Below are positions 5,814-30,030 of a stretch of DNA of 35,640 nucleotides, piece after piece (within the stretch, counting starts at the first letter, position 1; every line of letters begins with the position of its first letter). A program made the translations under genes and the position numbers. Source of the DNA: a virus (taxonomy: Duplodnaviria > Heunggongvirae > Uroviricota > Caudoviricetes); IMG/VR virus record IMGVR_UViG_2740892107_000010, positions 1 to 35,640 of that record, one strand, 5' to 3'. The notes below the pieces were generated by a model that was not told the origin of the DNA, made no database searches, and saw only the letters and a program-made list of their open reading frames with translations.

Positions 5814-8621
5814 ATGACGGCAGAGTACATCAGGGACTGGCAACAACCGCGCCACGCAGTGGGGCGTGAAGGAACGGGGATCCCCGCTCCTGAATCCGCG
5901 CTTTCCTCCTGGCTGGATGCCTACCGGGTAGAGAACGAGCGCCGCCAGGAAATAGCTGATGCGGCGTTCTCCGCCACGCCGCTGGGCAACCTGATTAATA
6001 AAAGCCTGGACGCACAGGAAAAACAGGACAAAACCATCACACTGGCAGGAGACGCCAGAAAGCAGGCACGCGGCGCGGTGGATGAAGCCATGGCCTCGCT
6101 GCGCCTGCTGCCGTCCTATCTGCGCGATCCGCTTATTCGCCACCTCTCCTTCCTGCGCAAAAAACAGGAAGCCGATCGCCGGAAAGGCAAAAAGAGCTGG
6201 CAGGCGGAACGCTATGCACGCGGAACCCTACGCAAAATATTCGAACGTCTGGATCGCACTGACGGACGCTGGCTGACACCGTGTTATTGCTCCCTTGCCG
6301 GACGCGAACGCCTGGACGATTTGCTTTACCTGCCGCAGCTCAACAAACACCAGATACAGACGCTGGCCACCATGACGGCGGCGATGTTCAGCAGCACTTT
6401 CGAAACACTCTGCGATGGCTTTGGTGCCAGAGATGGCGAGCTGACCATGGATGTAATGTTGAAGGCTTACCGGATGCTGGCTCGTATCGCATTATGCCTG
6501 CATATCATGCCGCCACATTACGAAGCCCTGAACAAGAGCGAACCGGATACGGAACTGCTGCCGGGCGCAATCCTTCGCCTGACCTGTGCGGAATGGTGGA
6601 AACGCAAACTGTGGCTTTTACGTTGCGAGTGGAGAGAAGAACAACTCCGCGCCGCCTGTCTGGTTTCCAGAAAAACATCACCCTATCTGAGCCAGGACGC
6701 GTTAAGCGAGTTTCGCGCACAGCGCGAGAAAACACGCGATTTCCTGAAAAGTTTCATGCTGGAAAACGAAGACGGGTTCACGATTGATCTCGAGACAGTG
6801 TATTACGCGGGAGTAAGTAACCCGGTTCACCGTAAGGCAGAAATGATGGCCACCATGAAGGGACTGGAACTTCTGGCCGAAGCCCGTGGCGACAAAGCGG
6901 TGTTTCTGACTGTCACCTGCCCGTCAAAATACCACGCTACAACAGAGAACGGTCATCCGAATCCCAAATGGAACGGGGCCACCATGCGCGACTCCAGCGA
7001 TTACCTGGTTAACACGTTTTTTGCGGCGGTCCGCAAGAAACTGAACCGCGACGGTCTGCGCTGGTATGGCATCCGCACGGTGGAGCCTCATCATGACGGC
7101 ACTGTGCACTGGCATATGATGGTCTTTGCTCATCCGGAAGAAATCGACAGCATCGTGGCCATCACCCGCGATATTGCCATTCAGGAAGACCGCCACGAAC
7201 TGGGCAATGATATTACTCCGCGCTTTAAGGCGGAGTACGTCGACGGCTCAAAAGGCACGCCAACCAGCTATATCGCGACCTACATCGGAAAGAACCTGGA
7301 CAGCCGCGCCGTGGATGGAATCGACCCGAAAACGGGCAAACCACGCGTTGACCACGAAACCGGAAAATCAATGGCCGAGAGCGTGGAGCGCGCCATCGGC
7401 TGGGCGCGCCTTCATCGGGTCCGCCAGTTCCAGTTCTTTGGCATCCCCTCCCGTCAGGTGTGGCGTGAACTGCGCCGCCTTGCCAGCCAGATGGCACGCA
7501 ACCCGGAAGGCCCGCAACGGCTGAAGGATGACGCAATGGATGCGGTACTCGCTGCCGCCGATGCCGGGTGTTTTGCCTCCTACATTGAAAAACAGGGCGG
7601 CGTACTTGTTCCACGTAAAGACTACCTGATTCGCACCGCCTACGACCTCGCAGATGAGCTGAACGATTACGGCGAGCAGAGTGTACAGATTTACGGGATC
7701 TGGTCGCCGCTCATCGGGGAGTCTTCCCGCGTGTGCACGCACCCGGATAACTGGAAGCTGGTAAGACGTAAACCGGAAGCGGAAGACAGCGCCCGCGAAA
7801 ATGGTTTTGACCTTCAGGGCGGCCCTGCCGCCCCTTGGACTCGTGGCAATAACTGTCCCCGTGTACAGGAAACGAGCAACAACGGAACAGAACAGCCGGA
7901 AGAACGGCCAGCACCGTGGCCGCAGCTTCCTGACGGCGTTGAAGTAAATGAATGGATGCGCTCACTGAAACGGCACGAACGCCGGGCGCTGATGCGTTCG
8001 CTTCGTGACAAACAGGCAAAAAACAGCAGCGATGAAATGCAGAACTGGACACAGAGCCGCAAACAGCCGCGACCTTTGCCTGATAACCACGAGTTACTCG
8101 CTAAAGAATGGCGGGAGTCTGCCGAATCTCTCGGCCTGCATATCGGTGAACAACAGATGCTGCACCTGTTACGGGGCGGCAGTCTGTACGTTGACGGCAG
8201 CATCATTGCACCGCAGGGATTTGAAATTGTACGCAAACCAGATACCCGACCGGACAGCCGAATCACGCAGCTCTGGCAGCGCCTGAGCCGTAATCACGGC
8301 GTAAGCAGCACGGAGATCCGCCATAACCCGGTCGCCAGCTATCTGGAACAGCTAGGGGCATCAGACCCCGAAGCCGCCGCACGCCTGGCATCCACACTTC
8401 AGCAGGACCAGAACACCATGAAGACACCCGTTACCGTGCTTTCTGACATGCTGCGCGCCATCCGTGACGCAGAGCACGCACAGAGAATCAGTGAAACCAC
8501 TGAACGCGCCCACCGCAAAGCAGACCTGCTGCGGGGTGGCCTGACCCGTGGGAACAAAAAACAGACAGAAACGGGATTCACAAATCCCGTAAATGAGCAA
8601 AAAAAGCGCCGCGAAATATGA
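5814..8621 (+). CDS. A: Rolling-circle replication initiator (P2 gpA family endonuclease)
   Basis: 935 aa; HUH-type motif VHWHMMVFA near residue 430; position after the early operon as in P2/186. Confidence 0.85.
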   Translation: MTAEYIRDWQQPRHAVGREGTGIPAPESALSSWLDAYRVENERRQEIADAAFSATPLGNLINKSLDAQEKQDKTITLAGDARKQARGAVDEAMASLRLLPSYLRDPLIRHLSFLRKKQEADRRKGKKSWQAERYARGTLRKIFERLDRTDGRWLTPCYCSLAGRERLDDLLYLPQLNKHQIQTLATMTAAMFSSTFETLCDGFGARDGELTMDVMLKAYRMLARIALCLHIMPPHYEALNKSEPDTELLPGAILRLTCAEWWKRKLWLLRCEWREEQLRAACLVSRKTSPYLSQDALSEFRAQREKTRDFLKSFMLENEDGFTIDLETVYYAGVSNPVHRKAEMMATMKGLELLAEARGDKAVFLTVTCPSKYHATTENGHPNPKWNGATMRDSSDYLVNTFFAAVRKKLNRDGLRWYGIRTVEPHHDGTVHWHMMVFAHPEEIDSIVAITRDIAIQEDRHELGNDITPRFKAEYVDGSKGTPTSYIATYIGKNLDSRAVDGIDPKTGKPRVDHETGKSMAESVERAIGWARLHRVRQFQFFGIPSRQVWRELRRLASQMARNPEGPQRLKDDAMDAVLAAADAGCFASYIEKQGGVLVPRKDYLIRTAYDLADELNDYGEQSVQIYGIWSPLIGESSRVCTHPDNWKLVRRKPEAEDSARENGFDLQGGPAAPWTRGNNCPRVQETSNNGTEQPEERPAPWPQLPDGVEVNEWMRSLKRHERRALMRSLRDKQAKNSSDEMQNWTQSRKQPRPLPDNHELLAKEWRESAESLGLHIGEQQMLHLLRGGSLYVDGSIIAPQGFEIVRKPDTRPDSRITQLWQRLSRNHGVSSTEIRHNPVASYLEQLGASDPEAAARLASTLQQDQNTMKTPVTVLSDMLRAIRDAEHAQRISETTERAHRKADLLRGGLTRGNKKQTETGFTNPVNEQKKRREI

Positions 8622-8661
8622 AGCGCGCACAAAACAGGCAAAAGCGGGATTTCAGAATCCC
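8573..8661. repeat. Two copies of a 16-bp palindrome gggatt-N4-aatccc, each followed by gtaa
   Basis: gggattcacaaatccc at 8573-8588 (inside the 3-prime end of A) and gggatttcagaatccc at 8646-8661 (just upstream of the parM-like start). Confidence 0.6.
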
Positions 8662-8697
8662 GTAACCGATTAATTAATCAATATAAGGAAAATCGAC

Positions 8698-9657
8698 ATG
8701 AAAATTTGTATCGACGACGGCTCCACCAACATCAAGCTGGCATGGACTGAGAACGGCGAACGCCGCAACGCCATCAGCCCGAACAGCTTCAAGTCGGAAT
8801 GGTCTGCGCCGTTCGGTGGCACGCATCCCGCGAACTACATGCTTGATGGCGTGCGCTATGGCTTTGATCCGGTCAGCGATCGCTTTGTCCAGACGACTGA
8901 CACGCAATACCAGTACAGCGATGTGAATGTAATCGCCATTCATCACGCGCTGGTCAAATCAGGCATCACACCACAGGAAGTGGATGTGGTTGTCACCCTG
9001 CCACTGAGTGAGTATTTCGACACAAACGCACAGCCGGACATGGCCAACATCAACCGCAAAAAAGCGAACGTCATGCGCCCGGTGGAGTACCAGAACGGCG
9101 AAGCATTCACTATCCGTAACGTACGGGTTATGCCTGAATCCATTCCGGCTGGCTTTAAAGCACTGGCTGACATGAGTCCGTTTGAATCCCTGCTGATTGT
9201 GGATTTAGGCGGAACCACGCTGGATGTGGCAAAGGTTCAGGGACAACTGGCAGGTATCAGCCAGGTGTTTTGCGATCCACACGTAGGCGTTTCCCTGATG
9301 GCCGATGCCGTACTGTCGGTGATGGCCACTAACGGTATGCGTACCAGTCACCACATCGCCAATACCATTATCGAACATCGCCATGATGAAGCCTGGCTGC
9401 GCCAGCACATCCACAATGACGCGCATTACGCCAGCCTGATGGCGGTTATTCGTGAAAAGGAAGAAACACTGAAACAACGCGTGATCCGCGCGCTGGCGGG
9501 TTTTTCGGGTTACGGGCGGGTGATGGTTGTCGGTGGCGGGGCGGAGATTGTGGCACCCGCTATCCGCGAAGCCTGCGGAGTTAATGCGACTTTCATCGCG
9601 GACGGGGTGCCACAGTTTGCTCTGGTTAATGGGCTGTACGCAATGGACAAGGAGTAA
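8698..9657 (+). CDS. parM: ParM/StbA-like actin-family ATPase
   Basis: N-terminus MKICIDDGSTNIKLAW...ISPNSFKSEW...YQYSDVNVIAIHHALVKSGI closely resembles plasmid R1 ParM as I recall it (MLVFIDDGSTNIKLQW...). Confidence 0.8.
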   Translation: MKICIDDGSTNIKLAWTENGERRNAISPNSFKSEWSAPFGGTHPANYMLDGVRYGFDPVSDRFVQTTDTQYQYSDVNVIAIHHALVKSGITPQEVDVVVTLPLSEYFDTNAQPDMANINRKKANVMRPVEYQNGEAFTIRNVRVMPESIPAGFKALADMSPFESLLIVDLGGTTLDVAKVQGQLAGISQVFCDPHVGVSLMADAVLSVMATNGMRTSHHIANTIIEHRHDEAWLRQHIHNDAHYASLMAVIREKEETLKQRVIRALAGFSGYGRVMVVGGGAEIVAPAIREACGVNATFIADGVPQFALVNGLYAMDKE

Positions 9658-9660
9658 ACC

Positions 9661-9973
9661 AATGACGACACCAACCAGACGAATAAGTTTCTATCTGAAG
9701 CCTGCCGCCGTCAAGAACGAAGGCGAAGCATGCGCCTGGCTGGACAGCCTTACACCAGAAGCCCGTAAAAACGGCCAACGCGTGGCTTTTCTGGCTGGTC
9801 TGGCGCTTCTGAAAATGAATCCGGCAGAGGCTTACCGACTGGCAGCATGGGCTGACGATGAGGCGTTATCAGTGACACAAACCAGGACAGAACGCCCCCT
9901 GTCACAGCCAGTACCAACCGCACAGATAACCAGTCAGATGGCCGGAAATATCAGGGCATTATTTCCTGAATAA
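9661..9973 (+). CDS. parR: ParR-like adaptor protein
   Basis: 104 aa directly after parM; RISFYLKP...LDSLTPEARK...AFLAGLALLKMNP...ALFPE resembles R1 ParR as I recall it; AGGAG ribosome-binding site. Confidence 0.6.
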
Positions 9974-10036
9974 CACAACGTCAGGGCGAGTTCGCCCTGA
10001 TCTCCATCTCAGAACATAAACAAGAAGAGCGACTTA

Positions 10037-10420
10037 ATGAGCAAAATCAACTATCAGGCATTACGTGAACGTTATTCACCTGCACCAGTACCAAAATGCC
10101 CTATTTGCGGCGAAGAAATGTCAATTCAGCGAATATCTGGAGCACTGGTTGTTTATGGCTGCTCCGGTTATGGTGATGATGGAGATTTCAAAATTGGTCG
10201 AACTCTTGCCGACGAACATTATGAAAAATCACGCGTAACAGTGTTGGATGTCGGGGATCCTGAAGTATTGGCGCTACTTGATTGGCTGGAAACCAAAGAC
10301 AACCGAATCGCTGAACTGGAAAAAATCGCCACTGACTATGCACTTAAATTCCAGAAAGCACAGGACGCATTAAAGTACGCCGCTTTGCTGCATAGCAGGA
10401 CAGTGCAGCTACAAGACTAA
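10037..10420 (+). CDS. Hypothetical protein with N-terminal CxxC zinc-ribbon-like motif
   Basis: 127 aa; CPICGEE ... YGCSGYG; helical C-terminal half. Confidence 0.55.
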   Translation: MSKINYQALRERYSPAPVPKCPICGEEMSIQRISGALVVYGCSGYGDDGDFKIGRTLADEHYEKSRVTVLDVGDPEVLALLDWLETKDNRIAELEKIATDYALKFQKAQDALKYAALLHSRTVQLQD

Positions 10421-10510
10421 CTTAAAGCGGAAGATTAATACATGGTGAGTCGGGGTAATTTGTTTTTATCCCGACAAATAAACAAAAAAGTGGACTATCT
10501 CTGTAGTATC

Positions 10511-11042
10511 TTATTCAGCATCGTCTCGTGCAGTCTGTGCATACGTCACAACAACGCCCAATGCATTAGTTTTCTTTTCAACATAGATAATATTGTCATA
10601 TTCATAGTTACCATACGGATAGCAAATAAGAATATTTTTATGCAGATCGGGATCATCAACAAACGCTCCGGAACAGCTTCTTGAACTACCGGATGTATAC
10701 TCATACGGTGCAACATATGATGATGTTACTCCTGGTAAAAAATAAGTCACCATCATAAGAGGGATAATCAGGAATATCCCTGTAAGAATGCAAGAGCCAG
10801 CATAAACCTTCAGGTATTCCGACAGTCCTTTCCAGCCACTTTGCTTCACTACCCCCCCTCTTCACCAGAAACAAGGAGAAGAAAAAGGACATACCCATAC
10901 TACACAAGATGTAATAATTGGATATACGCGAATTAAGATATGTAATCCTGTAGATATCTGCCCTCCACCAGTAAAAGAGGAAAATAATCCCTAGCACTGA
11001 AACAGTCATGCAAATCAAATAAGGATATGAATCTTTCTTCAT
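10511..11042 (-). CDS. AT-rich membrane protein gene, split into two overlapping frames at a C7/G7 tract
   Basis: ORF 10701-11042 (two hydrophobic segments) and ORF 10511-10849 (one hydrophobic segment) overlap in different frames; removing one base from the C7 run at 10852-10858 fuses them into about 175 aa. Confidence 0.5.
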
Positions 11043-11519
11043 GTCTTGCGCTCATTAAAATTTCCCTGCTACGAACAAATTTACCATCCGTTTTTTGCGC
11101 AGAAAACAGCACGATGCACACTGCACGATAGTGCACAAATTTGCACAATTTTTTTGAACGACTTTTTACCCTTCCGGCCAGCATGGCGGCTGGATCCGTC
11201 AAGGATCCGTGCGTGCACAAAAAAACGCGCTTTTTCTGCGCGCAGGTGACGGGGGAACAGCCCGCGTTTCAGGGGGTAAATAGCATTCCCTGAACGATGT
11301 CGCAGCGACACAACAGAATGGCTGTATTTCTCACACTGAGCGTGAAAAAGACGTGAGGGCTTTTGATTTGATGGGGTGACAGACAAGGCCGTCAAAATCG
11401 CACTGAGGCGGCAAGAACATGCAGTCGACGCGGTGGGATTGCGTAAGAGCCTGACCGTCGATGATGGCGATAAGCTGGAAGACGTCGTGAAATTATCTGA
11501 TTGATACAGGAGCTGGAGA

Positions 11520-11548
11520 GTCGGGGCATAAATTTTTTATGCCCCGGC
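11520..11548 (-). terminator. Hairpin downstream of portal gene
   Basis: Inverted repeat ggggcataaa / tttatgcccc at 11523-11545, immediately 3-prime of the Q stop on the minus strand. Confidence 0.4.
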
Positions 11549-11572
11549 GAAGCAGCAGACAAGCGAAGCGCG

Positions 11573-12619
11573 TCAGGATGTGGGCTGAGTGTCCAGCAGT
11601 GCGTAAGGGTTAAAGCGGATCACCTCTTCGCCAAGCCAGTCATTGATATGCTTCATGGCCTCCATTACGGGCATCAGCTCGTTAATTGCGTAAACCCGCG
11701 CTGCCTTCTCCACATCACCAAACGCACTTTTTTCGCCCGGCATCGCCCCCATCAGTTGCGGCGGAACGCGGTGCGCAGCCAGCACATCATCACGGGATGC
11801 CGCCTTAACATTCATGAACTCATCTTTTGCGGTGATCTGCTGGAACGGCAAAATTTGCACCCCCTCTTTGCCCCCGTTGGGCGCGTGAATGAGCACGTTT
11901 TTAAACGCACCACCACCACGTGCACCCTGTAGCGTTTCCTTCAGGGAGTCCATGCTTTCGCGGTTTACCTGCGCTGCACCGATGTAGATGATGCACCCGG
12001 CGTGGGATCCGTTGTCGTAATACAGTTTTCTGAACATGTCCGCCGAATGAGACAGGCTGGCCGAGAGTAATGCGCCGAGATATTCCGGCATGCCGTAGAT
12101 TTCCTGGTTAATGTCAGGATTCATCAGGTGGCACACTTTGCCAGAGCGAAACTGAAACGCGTCCTTGCCATCCTGCACATACCACCATGATTCAAGATCG
12201 CTTCCGCGTCGCATGTATTTCGCCAGGGCGTGCCGTAATTTAAGCGGTTCGCCGAGCATATTGCTTCGAAGCTCAAGGAATGCGTTACCGAACACAAACC
12301 AGTCCAGCGCCAGCGCCGAGAAATCCTGCCGGGAAAGCAGCGGATGCGGAATATAGCAGCCGAGCAATACATTACGCTTAAAGTAAAGCGCAGACTGATG
12401 CCAGGACGTTTGCCGGGCAGCTCTTGCCAGACCGTACCAGTCCACCGGGGTTTCATACCACCGCCCGTTATCAGCACAGTACATATTGTCCAGCAGGTCA
12501 TGCCCGGTCAGGCGGTAAGGACCATCAAATGTGAATGCACTGAGCGACGATTCTTTCCTGAGCGCATCAGCGAGATCAATGCGTGAACTCATGCGCACTT
12601 TTTTATTTTTTCTGCTCAT
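11573..12619 (-). CDS. Q: Portal protein (P2 gpQ family)
   Basis: 348 aa, size and position match P2 Q; start overlaps the terminase stop (ATGA). Confidence 0.85.
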   Translation of the reverse strand: MSRKNKKVRMSSRIDLADALRKESSLSAFTFDGPYRLTGHDLLDNMYCADNGRWYETPVDWYGLARAARQTSWHQSALYFKRNVLLGCYIPHPLLSRQDFSALALDWFVFGNAFLELRSNMLGEPLKLRHALAKYMRRGSDLESWWYVQDGKDAFQFRSGKVCHLMNPDINQEIYGMPEYLGALLSASLSHSADMFRKLYYDNGSHAGCIIYIGAAQVNRESMDSLKETLQGARGGGAFKNVLIHAPNGGKEGVQILPFQQITAKDEFMNVKAASRDDVLAAHRVPPQLMGAMPGEKSAFGDVEKAARVYAINELMPVMEAMKHINDWLGEEVIRFNPYALLDTQPTS

Positions 12620-27213: not shown

Positions 27214-30030
27214 TCAATCTTTATCGTAAAAACTGCCACGCCCGGCACGGGTGCGCCGTTCTATTTCTGCCCTGACCATTTCACCGACCAGTTTCGCCAG
27301 TTCGCGGGGATTCTGCGTAACAACGTTATGCAGATGAACATGAATTTCACCGCCAAATCCGGAGGCAACAGGCTCCCGGTTACGGGAAGTTGCAGGAACT
27401 GATGCCACTGGCGATCGTATGGCCTCCTCCACTGGGCGGGAGCTGGCCGTAACAACAGGGACCAGCGCCGGAGGCAGCGGAGCCGGGACCACGGGTGTGA
27501 TCTTAATTGCGGGGGCAGGCTTACTGACCTGCGCAATCTTCCGCTCCTGCCACTCCCCACGAACAGCAAGTGCGCGGGGCAGGTTCTTAAAGACAATATC
27601 GCCAGGGCCAATGCGTTTTTTCGTCTCATCAACCAGCTTACCTGTGTTATCAGCAATCTTGCTGAGTCTGCGTAGCGTACCGGTATTGCTGTCTGTGAGC
27701 GGTTTGTTGTCTTTGGGTTTATCGCCTCCGGTGCCATTGCCATTTTCCGCAGACTTCGGCGGATTGATTTTCGCAATGTCTCCCTGAAACAGAGCAACCT
27801 TATCCTGAAGAATGGCCGCACGCTGTGCGTCTTCGATTTTCTTTCTCGCCCTTTCCGCTTCATCCGGAAGCACACCGAGTTTTTCAAGTATCCACGCCAG
27901 CGTATCCAGCAACATTTTTGCAGGCGTCAGAACAAGCTGTAACGCGCCACCAAGAACGTTACCGAATACCTCGCCAGCACTGGCACATTTATCCAGCGTT
28001 TCCTTGCTGGACTCCATCGGTGACAACAGCGATTTAAACCAGTTAAACACCTGGCTGATCCCGCTTCCGATTGCGTCAAAAACAGGGCCAAACCGTTCAA
28101 AGGTTTCGCGCAACGGGGTCAGCCTTTCCATAATTCCGCTGAACACCCCGGCAAAAAATGCCCTGATGGGATCCCAATATTTCCAGATAAGAATGGCTGC
28201 TCCGGCAAGCGCAGCCACGATAAGACCAACCGGACTGAACAGCGCCCCGATAGCACCTCCCAGCAAAGAAACGGAACCCGTCACCATTCCCCATAGTGCT
28301 GGCAGGAGCCTGACAGCATTCATTGATCCGGTCAGGAGGGAAAAAACAAGACGCAGTTTTGCCAGTGGGCCAGCAAGCACACCAAGAGCAAGCGACAACG
28401 AGCCTACGGTTGCAGTCACTGCCAGCAGCGCACCGCCTGCAATCAGTAGCTGGCGCGTCAGTACAGGATGGGCCTGCGCCAGTGCCGTCACCTTTGAGAC
28501 CACCCGCGTTAGCCACTGCGTGACAGAACGCAGCGGACCGTCAACCAGATCACTGATGCGAATACGAAGACCTTCCCATGCGCTGTCGAGATTTTTCAGG
28601 TCGCCATCAAGGTTGTCGGCCATAACCTTTGCCGTGCGTTCAGCCTCACCGCGTGCGCCCTCAAGTTCTTTTCTCAGTTTGGGTAAGGAACCGTCACCCG
28701 CCGCATCAACGAGTGCCATAAACGATGTGAAAGCCTCTTCCCCGGCGATGTCCTTAAAGAAGGATACCCGGTCAACTTCCCCGTATTTGCGGGTAGCTTT
28801 ATAAAGGTCAGCCAGCAGATCTTCCATCGGGCGCATTTTGCCCCCGGCATCCGAGACGGACACGCCCAGCTCTTTCAGAGCTTCTGCCGCCGCCTTTGGC
28901 GGTGATGCCAGACGAGCCAGGCTGGCACGCATTGCCGTCCCGGCATCACTCCCCCTGATGCCCATATTCGCCAGTACGCCCGCCATCGCTGCGGCCTGCT
29001 CCAGCGATATTCCCAGCTTACCCGCCACCGGACCTGCATATTTCATGGTTTCGCCCAGTGCGCGAAGGTCAGTGTTGGTACGGGTAAACGCTGCGGTGAG
29101 TGTGTCACCGACCCGATCCATCTGGTCAGCAGAAAGGCCGAACTGCGTCAGGATATTTGAGCCAATATCTGCCGTCTCGCCGAGCTCCATACCGCCAGCC
29201 GTTGCCATGCTCAGCACGCCCGGAAGCGCAGCCTGAATGGCCTGCGGTGTGAAGCCAGCCATTGCAAGAAATGCCTGTCCACTGGCGGCATCGCCTGCAG
29301 TGAACTGAGTTTCAGAGCCAAGTTTTAACGCCTGCTCACGCAGCGCCTTAAACTGCGGGCTGTTTTTGTCGATTCGCGTCAGTGCCTGAACGCGGGACAT
29401 CTCTTTCCCGAACCCGATCGCAGGCTGCAAAAAACGCCCGGCAGCATAGCCGCCCGCCGCTGCCGCACCAATTGCCAGCGCACCACCTGTTTTCAGTTTT
29501 CCCGCAGTTTCCTGCGCGCGTGAATACCGCTCACGCGCCCGCGTTACACGCGCAAGCGCCTGCCGTTCGCGTTCAAGCTGGTTGTTGTACTGTTCGGTGC
29601 GTCTGATGGCCTGCTGGATGGTGTTATCGCTGCCTGTCAGGGAAATGCCGTGGCGTTTCAGCTCTCCGCCAAGCTCCCGCATTTTCTGAATTTCCCGTGC
29701 GCGCGATTCATTCAGGCGTTCAAGCCGGGTGCTTAACTGCTGCATCAGCTTTTGTTGTTTTTCGCTGAGCACTGTACCCGTGCGTTGTAACTGATTAAGG
29801 GCGTTAAGCTGGCGTCGTGCTTTCAATATGCCAGCATCCGCTTTACTGACAGCGTCACGGGCGCGCTCAAATGAACGCGCCTGACGCTCGAGATTTTTGA
29901 TCGCCCCCTGCGTTCGCTGGATGGAGTCACCAAACTGCCCCATCAGGCGGCGGGCGTTTTCGGCAGGCCGGGTCAGCCTGTCAACGGCGCTGAAAGCGAC
30001 CCGGATATCAAGAGTCTTCATTGTCTGCAT
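27214..30030 (-). CDS. T: Tail tape measure protein (P2 gpT family)
   Basis: About 940 aa, alanine/glycine-rich with hydrophobic central stretches; start uncertain among GTG 30057, ATG 30030, ATG 30021. Confidence 0.85.
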   Translation of the reverse strand: MQTMKTLDIRVAFSAVDRLTRPAENARRLMGQFGDSIQRTQGAIKNLERQARSFERARDAVSKADAGILKARRQLNALNQLQRTGTVLSEKQQKLMQQLSTRLERLNESRAREIQKMRELGGELKRHGISLTGSDNTIQQAIRRTEQYNNQLERERQALARVTRARERYSRAQETAGKLKTGGALAIGAAAAGGYAAGRFLQPAIGFGKEMSRVQALTRIDKNSPQFKALREQALKLGSETQFTAGDAASGQAFLAMAGFTPQAIQAALPGVLSMATAGGMELGETADIGSNILTQFGLSADQMDRVGDTLTAAFTRTNTDLRALGETMKYAGPVAGKLGISLEQAAAMAGVLANMGIRGSDAGTAMRASLARLASPPKAAAEALKELGVSVSDAGGKMRPMEDLLADLYKATRKYGEVDRVSFFKDIAGEEAFTSFMALVDAAGDGSLPKLRKELEGARGEAERTAKVMADNLDGDLKNLDSAWEGLRIRISDLVDGPLRSVTQWLTRVVSKVTALAQAHPVLTRQLLIAGGALLAVTATVGSLSLALGVLAGPLAKLRLVFSLLTGSMNAVRLLPALWGMVTGSVSLLGGAIGALFSPVGLIVAALAGAAILIWKYWDPIRAFFAGVFSGIMERLTPLRETFERFGPVFDAIGSGISQVFNWFKSLLSPMESSKETLDKCASAGEVFGNVLGGALQLVLTPAKMLLDTLAWILEKLGVLPDEAERARKKIEDAQRAAILQDKVALFQGDIAKINPPKSAENGNGTGGDKPKDNKPLTDSNTGTLRRLSKIADNTGKLVDETKKRIGPGDIVFKNLPRALAVRGEWQERKIAQVSKPAPAIKITPVVPAPLPPALVPVVTASSRPVEEAIRSPVASVPATSRNREPVASGFGGEIHVHLHNVVTQNPRELAKLVGEMVRAEIERRTRAGRGSFYDKD

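Follow-up and report, generated by a model that had tools for sequence, protein, structure and literature searches.

The stretch of DNA analysed here (the window; positions 1 to 35,640 of IMG/VR virus record IMGVR_UViG_2740892107_000010, 35,640 nucleotides (nt)) is a P88-like prophage of the genus Xuanwuvirus (family Peduoviridae, P2-like), and 14 phage records match the region at 96-97% identity. The replication gene A is followed by parM and then by parR, which encode an actin-like segregation ATPase and an adaptor of the StbB family, and a gap of 76 base pairs (bp) separates A from the parM start codon. Two copies of a palindrome flank the end of A, and these paired sites are the subject of the present analysis. 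The sites are real, non-random and constrained; their linkage is to parMR, not to A, and they match the N-terminal type of ParR. The coordinates of the features are collected in Table 1.

Table 1. Features of the A-parM-parR locus; positions are those of the window.
Feature	Position	Strand	Remarks
Gene A	5814-8621	+	Pfam Phage_GPA 8e-130; stop codon 8619-8621
Left edge of the exchangeable par module	8510-8571	+	Last A-frame stretch before site 1; absent from A genes without parMR
Repeat unit 1, 38 nt	8555-8592	+	A-rich flank CAAAAAACAGACAGAAA, site 1 and TAA
Site 1, 18-bp palindrome CGGGATTCACAAATCCCG (CGGGATT-N4-AATCCCG)	8572-8589		Core GGG-N10-CCC 8573-8588; last codons of A
Spacer between the sites, 55 bp	8590-8644		Contains the A stop and a GC-rich GCGC...GCGCGC segment; poorly conserved
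Repeat unit 2, 38 nt	8628-8665	+	A-rich flank CACAAAACAGGCAAAAG, site 2 and TAA
Site 2, 18-bp palindrome CGGGATTTCAGAATCCCG (CGGGATT-N4-AATCCCG)	8645-8662		Core 8646-8661; A-parM gap
AT-rich box GATTAATTAATCAA	8668-8681		Includes core ATTAATCAA 8673-8681; divergence 0.024
parM, actin-like segregation ATPase, 319 amino acids	8698-9657	+	Pfam StbA_N 3e-82, ParM C-terminal domain 1e-68
parR, StbB-family adaptor, 103 amino acids	9662-9973	+	Pfam Plasmid_stab_B (PF10784) 5e-24; proposed binder of sites 1 and 2
GC-rich hairpin TCAGGGCGAGTTCGCCCTGA, 8 bp	9981-10000		8 bp past the parR stop; minus-strand terminator-like in the scan

The motif GGGATTNNNNAATCCC (GGGATT-N4-AATCCC) has exactly two matches in the window, 73 bp apart, one in the 3' end of A and the other in the gap before parM, as an earlier reading of the sequence alone had noticed. 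No further match is present in the window when one mismatch is allowed, with 0.09 expected from shuffles. Both copies extend to 18 bp and are directly followed by TAA, and site 2 begins 53 bp ahead of the parM ATG (52 bp for its core). The similarity extends beyond the palindromes into a 38-nt direct repeat, the left flank of which is rich in A; its two units are 79% identical at a spacing of 73. Among 104 distinct P88-like loci, the spacing of the sites is 73 bp in 100, 72 bp in two and 74 bp in two.

A protein search yielded ParM homologues of intermediate identity, all of which are encoded directly after A in other P2-like prophages (an additional reading frame in Hafnia is described below). 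These comprise five loci of four lineages: Hafnia (62% identical; L091), Plesiomonas (63%; L094), Serratia (57-58%; L095 and L101) and Enterobacter (54%; L097). Two GGG-N10-CCC cores precede parM in E. coli, Hafnia and Plesiomonas, at -52 to -59 and -125 to -131 from its ATG and with a spacing of 72-73 bp. The sites are GGGATTGAGGAAACCC (the counterpart of site 1) and GGGTTCATTAAATCCC in Hafnia, and GGGACAACAAAAACCC (the counterpart of site 1) and GGGACAACACTAACCC in Plesiomonas. When each 160-nt upstream region is shuffled 200,000 times, a pair spaced 70-75 bp apart arises in 0-2 of the shuffles. In a self-match analysis, the strongest lag is 73 in the E. coli window, 73 in Hafnia and 72 in Plesiomonas, with z values of 4.9 for the window, 3.6 for the lag of 72 and 3.4 for the other lag of 73. 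Searches of viral contigs with the Hafnia and Plesiomonas ParM proteins returned almost nothing.

A comparison of the three lineages reveals that only the outer GGG and CCC of the E. coli palindromes are retained in Hafnia and Plesiomonas. The remainder of the upstream region has diverged in the three-lineage alignment, with the exception of the ATTAATCAA box and the ribosome-binding site, and the upstream coding sequence is non-homologous among the three. The A-rich flank of repeat unit 1 is kept within the P88-like group and is not found in Hafnia or Plesiomonas. The sequence-only reading had looked to homologous loci for conservation of the palindromes; this expectation fails for the palindromes as such outside E. 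coli and holds for the paired GGG-N10-CCC cores and their spacing.

Within the P88-like group, the divergence from the window is 0.025 for the four palindrome arms and 0.020 for the GGGA/TCCC cores. The individual arms have values of 0.049 (left) and 0.016 (right) at site 1 and of 0.006 and 0.030 at site 2. The synonymous sites of parM diverge by 0.076, and the spacer segment 8590-8627 diverges similarly, by 0.080; the palindrome arms evolve approximately three times more slowly than the synonymous sites. The four central nucleotides of site 2 have a divergence of 0.188, and this centre appears unconstrained in the alignments. These values bear on the possibility that the repeat is a scar of recombination or duplication at a cargo junction, to which nothing specific, or else some host or phage factor, binds. 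The position of the sites at a module boundary in a cargo hot-spot fits such a scar, as does, within each lineage, the similarity of the sequences that flank the two copies. However, the cores and the 72-73-bp spacing persist where synonymous sites are saturated and the spacer has diverged, the arms are slowed as described, and only parM and parR are consistently linked to the sites, which makes a scar improbable.

The linkage of the sites was examined in loci where A differs. The Hafnia A protein is 33% identical to the A protein of the window, and an unrelated open reading frame (ORF) of 167 amino acids lies between A and parM, with both sites at its 3' end. The Plesiomonas A protein can be aligned over residues 1-691 only and has an unrelated C-terminal part, and site 1 still lies in the last codons. 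Hafnia reads site 1 in another frame than the one used by E. coli and Plesiomonas; in two of the lineages, site 2 falls outside any coding sequence. The homology to the window stops at approximately 8509 in an E. coli prophage (L185; NZ_CP104592.1), the A gene of which has a different tail and is without the last ~110 nt; site 1 and parMR are absent as well. In the viral contigs, loci with two copies of the full palindrome have them upstream of parM in 39 of 39 cases; the approximately 40 isolated copies elsewhere in the viral contigs occur in unrelated contexts, at about the level expected by chance for a collection of this size. Because the sites follow parMR where A or the upstream ORFs are unrelated and are absent where the module is replaced, they belong to the par module and not to A. 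In another locus (L184; NZ_CP115358.1), site 2, parM and parR are cleanly deleted and the A tail is fused to an Ead/Ea22-like gene. The region after A behaves as a cargo hot-spot.

Two further observations concern the ends of these A genes. From ~8510 of the L185 alignment, an AAA ATPase and an S8 peptidase replace the whole module, and this cargo is possibly a defence system. The C-terminal ~245 residues of the window A protein (935 amino acids; about residues 692-935, window 7886-8621) have no counterpart in the Plesiomonas A protein (789 amino acids) and align with the P2 A protein (761 amino acids) over a short stretch only, to about residue 739. The A protein has no Pfam match beyond residue 498. 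From these alignments, the C-terminal part is predicted to be an extra domain.

The sequence-only reading had also suggested that the palindromes could be part of the A-dependent origin; they might, for example, be accessory sites for A binding or loading. In favour of such a role are the location of site 1 within A and the fact that the P2 origin is likewise within A, where the P2 record NC_001895 annotates the A nick site (rep_origin) at 29892, within GCGCCTCGGAGTCCTGTCAATAACTGT. The homologue of this nick block in the window is GCCCCTTGGACTCGTGGCAATAACTGT at 7830-7856, which encodes the motif AAPWTRGNNC, has conserved counterparts in A of both Plesiomonas and Hafnia and is located ~720 bp upstream of the palindromes; this block is the predicted A nick site and origin. 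Neither homology to the nick block nor presence with A whatever the cargo, the two marks of a P2-type origin, is found at 8572-8662. The sites follow parMR even when A is only 33% identical and another ORF intervenes, an A gene of the same family without parMR has no site 1, and the P2 A gene itself is without such a tail. A role of the sites in the A-dependent origin was therefore rejected as very improbable.

The sequence-only reading had the palindromes bridge the end of A and a parM-like promoter. A consensus scan, which weak or atypical promoters could escape, detects no sigma-70 promoter in 8200-10200 or in 7120-11600, and the alignment of the three lineages shows no conserved -35/-10 pair, so this promoter is not borne out. 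Candidates inspected by hand (TATAAG at 8682-8687 and ATTAAT boxes) overlap the Shine-Dalgarno sequence or miss key bases, are not conserved, and were rejected. Plus-strand terminator-like matches from A to 11131 are limited to weak ones of 5 pairs, both within parM. With neither a separate promoter nor a terminator upstream detected, read-through of parMR from A, as part of the early operon, is probable. The integrase and a helix-turn-helix repressor are encoded on the minus strand at the left end of the prophage; a long run of early genes on the plus strand, including A, parM and parR, follows, and then the portal and terminase genes on the minus strand.

The symmetry of the sites raises the question of whether they act as hairpins, either as minus-strand terminators or as stem-loops that stabilise or process the A-parM mRNA. 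The stems are 7-8 bp long, and the sites of the window fold as RNA with energies of -10.7 and -11.0 kcal/mol (z -4.0 and -3.4) and as DNA with -8.1 and -7.3 kcal/mol. The two copies can also pair together as RNA (-38 kcal/mol, z -5.8), and both are terminator-like in the minus-strand scan, where T-rich tracts with interrupted T runs come after them. However, this potential is lost in Hafnia and Plesiomonas, the sites of which fold no better than shuffles (-1.0 to -3.2 kcal/mol). One-sided variants are frequent in E. coli, with GGGACT in 24 of 95 site-1 copies, which creates a C·A mismatch, and a terminal CCT in 17 of approximately 100 site-2 copies, and no compensatory double change is present among the ~95 distinct P88-like loci. 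No minus-strand gene reads into the sites and no minus-strand unit ends there; the late operon on that strand has its own strong terminator at 11243-11225, and no Rfam family matches the region. A hairpin followed by a T run, located at the end of a transcription unit and conserved in structure, as an intrinsic terminator would be, is thus not what the locus presents, and a function as a hairpin appears quite improbable. The conservation of the outer half-sites, the free centre, the fixed spacing and the lack of selection for pairing instead favour a symmetric protein-binding site on double-stranded DNA.

The protein that would bind such a site is proposed to be ParR, because parM and parR are the only genes always linked to the sites across lineages and ParR is the DNA-binding adaptor of the family. 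The proteins themselves look functional, as judged from the selection on parM and the profile match of ParR. The ratio of nonsynonymous to synonymous polymorphism (pN/pS) of parM is ~0.07 over 94 alleles, which indicates strong purifying selection. The motifs DDGSTN, DLGGTTLD and GGGAE are present in the translation and the ATPase is intact, and the PHROG label for parM is "partition protein". The nearest plasmid ParM proteins share 47-52% identity with ParM of the window, and one of them (L089) matches R1 ParM save for one residue. A family profile of ParR that includes the protein of the window matches the structure of pB171 StbB/ParR (2JD3) with E=9e-17, and that structure has an N-terminal ribbon-helix-helix domain. 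A search of the PDB with the single ParR sequence and a search of NCBIfam gave no match.

The N-terminal strand of ParR has the sequence TRRISFYL in E. coli and Plesiomonas and TRRVSFYL in Hafnia, that is, in the lineages with the site pair. In a sister clade (Serratia, Enterobacter and two viral contigs), every member has NRKISFYL. The sister cassette, the ParM of which is 54-58% identical, is likewise located after A in the Serratia type, and its cis region contains a 20-nt inverted repeat, GGGAACGATATAGAAAAAT...ATTTTTCTGTTTCGTTCCC, spanning 66 nt and a palindrome, GCCGTTTAAACGGC, unlike the site pair. The left repeat of the Serratia type shares the string CAAAAACGGGA with the repeats of the window, and the string ACAGGCAAAAACGGGA of repeat unit 2 also occurs at that left repeat. 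Such agreement between the type of ParR and the layout of the sites fits a reading of the sites by ParR and is supportive rather than conclusive. The repeats of the sister cassettes (L095, L097, L101 and L103-L105) are located ~40-125 bp before parM, and their arms change independently and without compensation. Their core, ATTTTTCT, resembles the parC iterons of an IncL/M plasmid (L085), the ParR of which begins NRKCSFYI; the ParR proteins of the plasmid and of the sister cassettes both start with NRK.SFY.

Within E. coli, the covariation of ParR and the sites is uninformative, given that the DNA-binding half of ParR is invariant. The ParR alleles of the P88-like prophages (proteins P0121-P0203) range from 94% down to 52% identity, and the divergence is all in the C-terminal half (window 9812-9973), whereas residues 1-50 are near-invariant and the last eight residues, NI(R/Q)ALFPE, are kept. 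The ParM proteins beside the divergent ParR alleles are at least 98% identical, and the sites are unaltered beside the ParR allele of 52% identity. This C-terminal variation has the appearance of mosaic exchange at the cassette's right end or of diversifying selection on a linker.

Taken together, these data suggest, with a probability of about 0.6, that the two palindromes are a reduced parC-like docking site for ParR, in which four half-sites take the place of iteron arrays. The ParMR cassette, of type II, would be carried as cargo directly after the replication gene A of the P88-like prophage. By analogy with R1, pB171 and SXT/R391, ParR, with its predicted N-terminal ribbon-helix-helix domain, would form dimers, and these dimers would read the GGGA/TCCC half-sites on double-stranded DNA, two per palindrome and four in all. 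The half-site centres are ~12 bp apart, and because the 73 bp between the palindromes correspond to about seven helical turns, both palindromes would be presented on one side of the helix. ParR bound there may then capture the ends of ParM filaments with its conserved C-terminal tail (NIRALFPE), as in R1-type systems, and the filaments would move or position the circular phage DNA. As parMR appears to be expressed together with the early operon, and as the phage usually resides in the chromosome, the target would most likely be the excised or infecting circular genome rather than the integrated prophage. ParR binding, its stoichiometry, filament capture and timing are points that we infer by analogy.

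Several points weigh against a ParR docking site. Only four half-sites are present, and there is no iteron periodicity of 10-11 bp; a complex on two sites may be too small to cap ParM filaments. The bare GGG-N10-CCC pattern is not rare in the window (6 observed, 7.2 expected), and the link between ParR type and site layout is a single split between two clades, i.e., one evolutionary event. The AlphaFold 2 monomer of ParR is of low confidence (predicted local distance difference test score, pLDDT, 58.8), with a coil followed by two helices, and a fold search of the PDB with this low-confidence model gave no meaningful match. The L184-type deletion is in a resident prophage, which indicates that the system is dispensable for chromosomal residence. 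A literature search yielded no paper about the par locus of P88-type prophages or about its centromere, and GenBank and RefSeq annotate the proteins only. Additionally, the lack of a detected promoter leaves a classical operator role unsupported. The sequence-only reading had offered a reduced centromere or operator for ParR; the centromere is favoured by position, by linkage to parMR and by the match to ParR type, and the operator is doubtful.

A related explanation is that ParR or another protein binds the sites as a regulatory element only, for example as a roadblock or attenuator that sets the expression of parMR against that of A, in a par locus that is decayed or repurposed. The two sites compare with approximately ten iterons in a functional plasmid parC, and they lie within the likely A-parM transcript. 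Partition is not needed in the chromosome, where the prophage is found almost without exception: the A-parM junction was found in 1373 of 5426 complete E. coli genomes, O157:H7 and ST131 strains among them, at 1535 places of which 1533 are chromosomal and 2 are on plasmids. However, a decayed or purely regulatory locus accords poorly with the low pN/pS of parM, with the conservation of the ParM-binding tail of ParR and with the retention of the cassette in at least three diverged phage lineages, and no promoter is available to be regulated. This explanation is accordingly unlikely.

If the ParR docking site is accepted, the integrating P2-like phage, which replicates by rolling circle, may use a plasmid-type actin machine with a minimal centromere of four half-sites to place its circular genomes or to part them from one another, upon infection or induction; this extension is tentative and on balance doubtful. 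If true, the locus would contain the smallest known functional type II centromere, located partly inside a protein-coding tail, in a phage family present in about one quarter of sequenced E. coli. AlpAC in CGP3 and PhuZ in jumbo phages would be parallels. Type II partition is known mainly from plasmids with long iteron arrays, and here the same proteins are accompanied by a cis region of two palindromes. Confirmation of ParR binding would establish a minimal centromere and a handy system for determining how many ParR dimers are needed per ParM filament cap. No paper was found that addresses why a partition machine is retained under purifying selection by a P2-like phage that integrates; with the cis sites located, this question becomes directly testable.

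Other features are present near the sites. The core ATTAATCAA of the AT-rich box, about 20-30 bp upstream of the ATG, is common to all three site-pair lineages. The box also contains a 12-bp palindrome, GATTAATTAATC, just 5' of the ribosome-binding site of parM. In 10 of 105 distinct loci the box reads GGTTAATTAACC, a change on both sides that leaves the palindrome intact, and other variants occur in 7 of the 105, six of them one-sided. A possible role of the box is that of another protein site or of a translation signal. In the spacer, CAA AAA AAG (8597-8605) forms an in-frame dnaX-like slippery heptamer that is followed by a GC-rich stem (GCGCCGCG...GCGCGC; whole feature 8597-8628) near the A stop, and a -1 shift there would lengthen A to the TAA at 8663-8665. 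A programmed frameshift as a conserved feature was rejected, since the A7 run is present in only 3 of 100 related loci, most of which have A6 followed by C and are out of register; the heptamer probably reflects run-length variation rather than a programmed event. The hairpin after parR may be a weak terminator, or the par module may have its right edge there. A single scan of genome contigs gave only three near-identical loci. One contig labelled Vagococcus sp., a Gram-positive genus (L083; NZ_JBQPOM010000071.1), carries the enterobacterial prophage junction with a ParM of 98% identity, and this assembly is probably contaminated or mislabelled.

By its proteins and gene order, the locus is classed as a member of the ParMRC family with a divergent cis region. 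The parC site of plasmid R1 is 159 bp long and consists of two sets of five direct 11-bp iterons with a 39-bp promoter spacer between them (PMC2241845). As in R1 and in par2 of pB171, the order is cis site, parM and parR, the cis site directly precedes parM, and the ParR proteins share a Pfam family. The cis site is in two blocks, as in R1-type systems, where offsets of 72-73 bp are among those that keep the two iteron blocks in phase, and a CCC followed by a run of A recurs. The right half of Hafnia site 1, AAACCCAAAAAC, equals an R1-type iteron 12-mer in L089; this string is of low complexity, is only suggestive and is not relied upon. The differences from R1 are that the prophage locus has two 18-bp palindromes with no iteron array and no detected promoter, two textbook features of parC, that site 1 lies within the coding end of the upstream gene, and that the host element is an integrating phage and not a plasmid. 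Additionally, the residues of ParR presumed, from their position in the strand, to face the DNA are T, R, S and Y in the prophage and R, T, A and K in R1, a further reason for not relying on the shared 12-mer.

The plasmid homologues and D6 have gaps of ~130-410 bp before parM, with direct iterons of 10-11 bp in two blocks. The self-match lags of the plasmid controls are 10-11 and 20-22, whereas the only strong lag in the window is 73, with no 10-11-bp periodicity in the 150-bp region. The GGGATT palindrome is present in none of six plasmid and D6 homologues, all of which have direct iteron arrays. In D6, a plasmid-prophage with StbA and StbB, the ParM is 48% identical, and arrays of TCTCAAA-type direct repeats are located in an intergenic gap of 266 bp.

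Two systems on integrated elements offer further comparisons. The srpC site of SXT/R391 comprises four short direct and inverted repeats upstream of srpM, to which SrpR binds in pairs, binding single half-sites poorly (PMC4489591). Like the prophage locus, srpMRC is a type II-like partition system on a normally integrated element, with a cis site in the 5' leader of the M gene and a proposed role in the transient circular form. However, SrpR is without homology to known ParR proteins according to its authors (PMC4489591), whereas the prophage ParR is a clear member of the StbB family. The srpC repeats are 13 bp long and differ in sequence and layout, and their function was shown experimentally, whereas that of the prophage sites is inferred. 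In prophage CGP3 of Corynebacterium glutamicum, AlpA, AlpC and alpS form an early-induced system that supports the replication of the excised phage DNA (PMC4446434). That system differs in that the adaptor gene comes first, in its 24 short alpS repeats (TTAAnnG), and in its Gram-positive host and other phage type, and the Alp proteins are not closely related to ParM and ParR of the R1 type. The two are alike in that an integrated prophage encodes an actin-like filament protein together with a DNA-binding adaptor that acts, or in the present case would act, on repeats beside its own operon, and CGP3 may thus serve as a model for the possible role of ParMR in the P88-like prophage.

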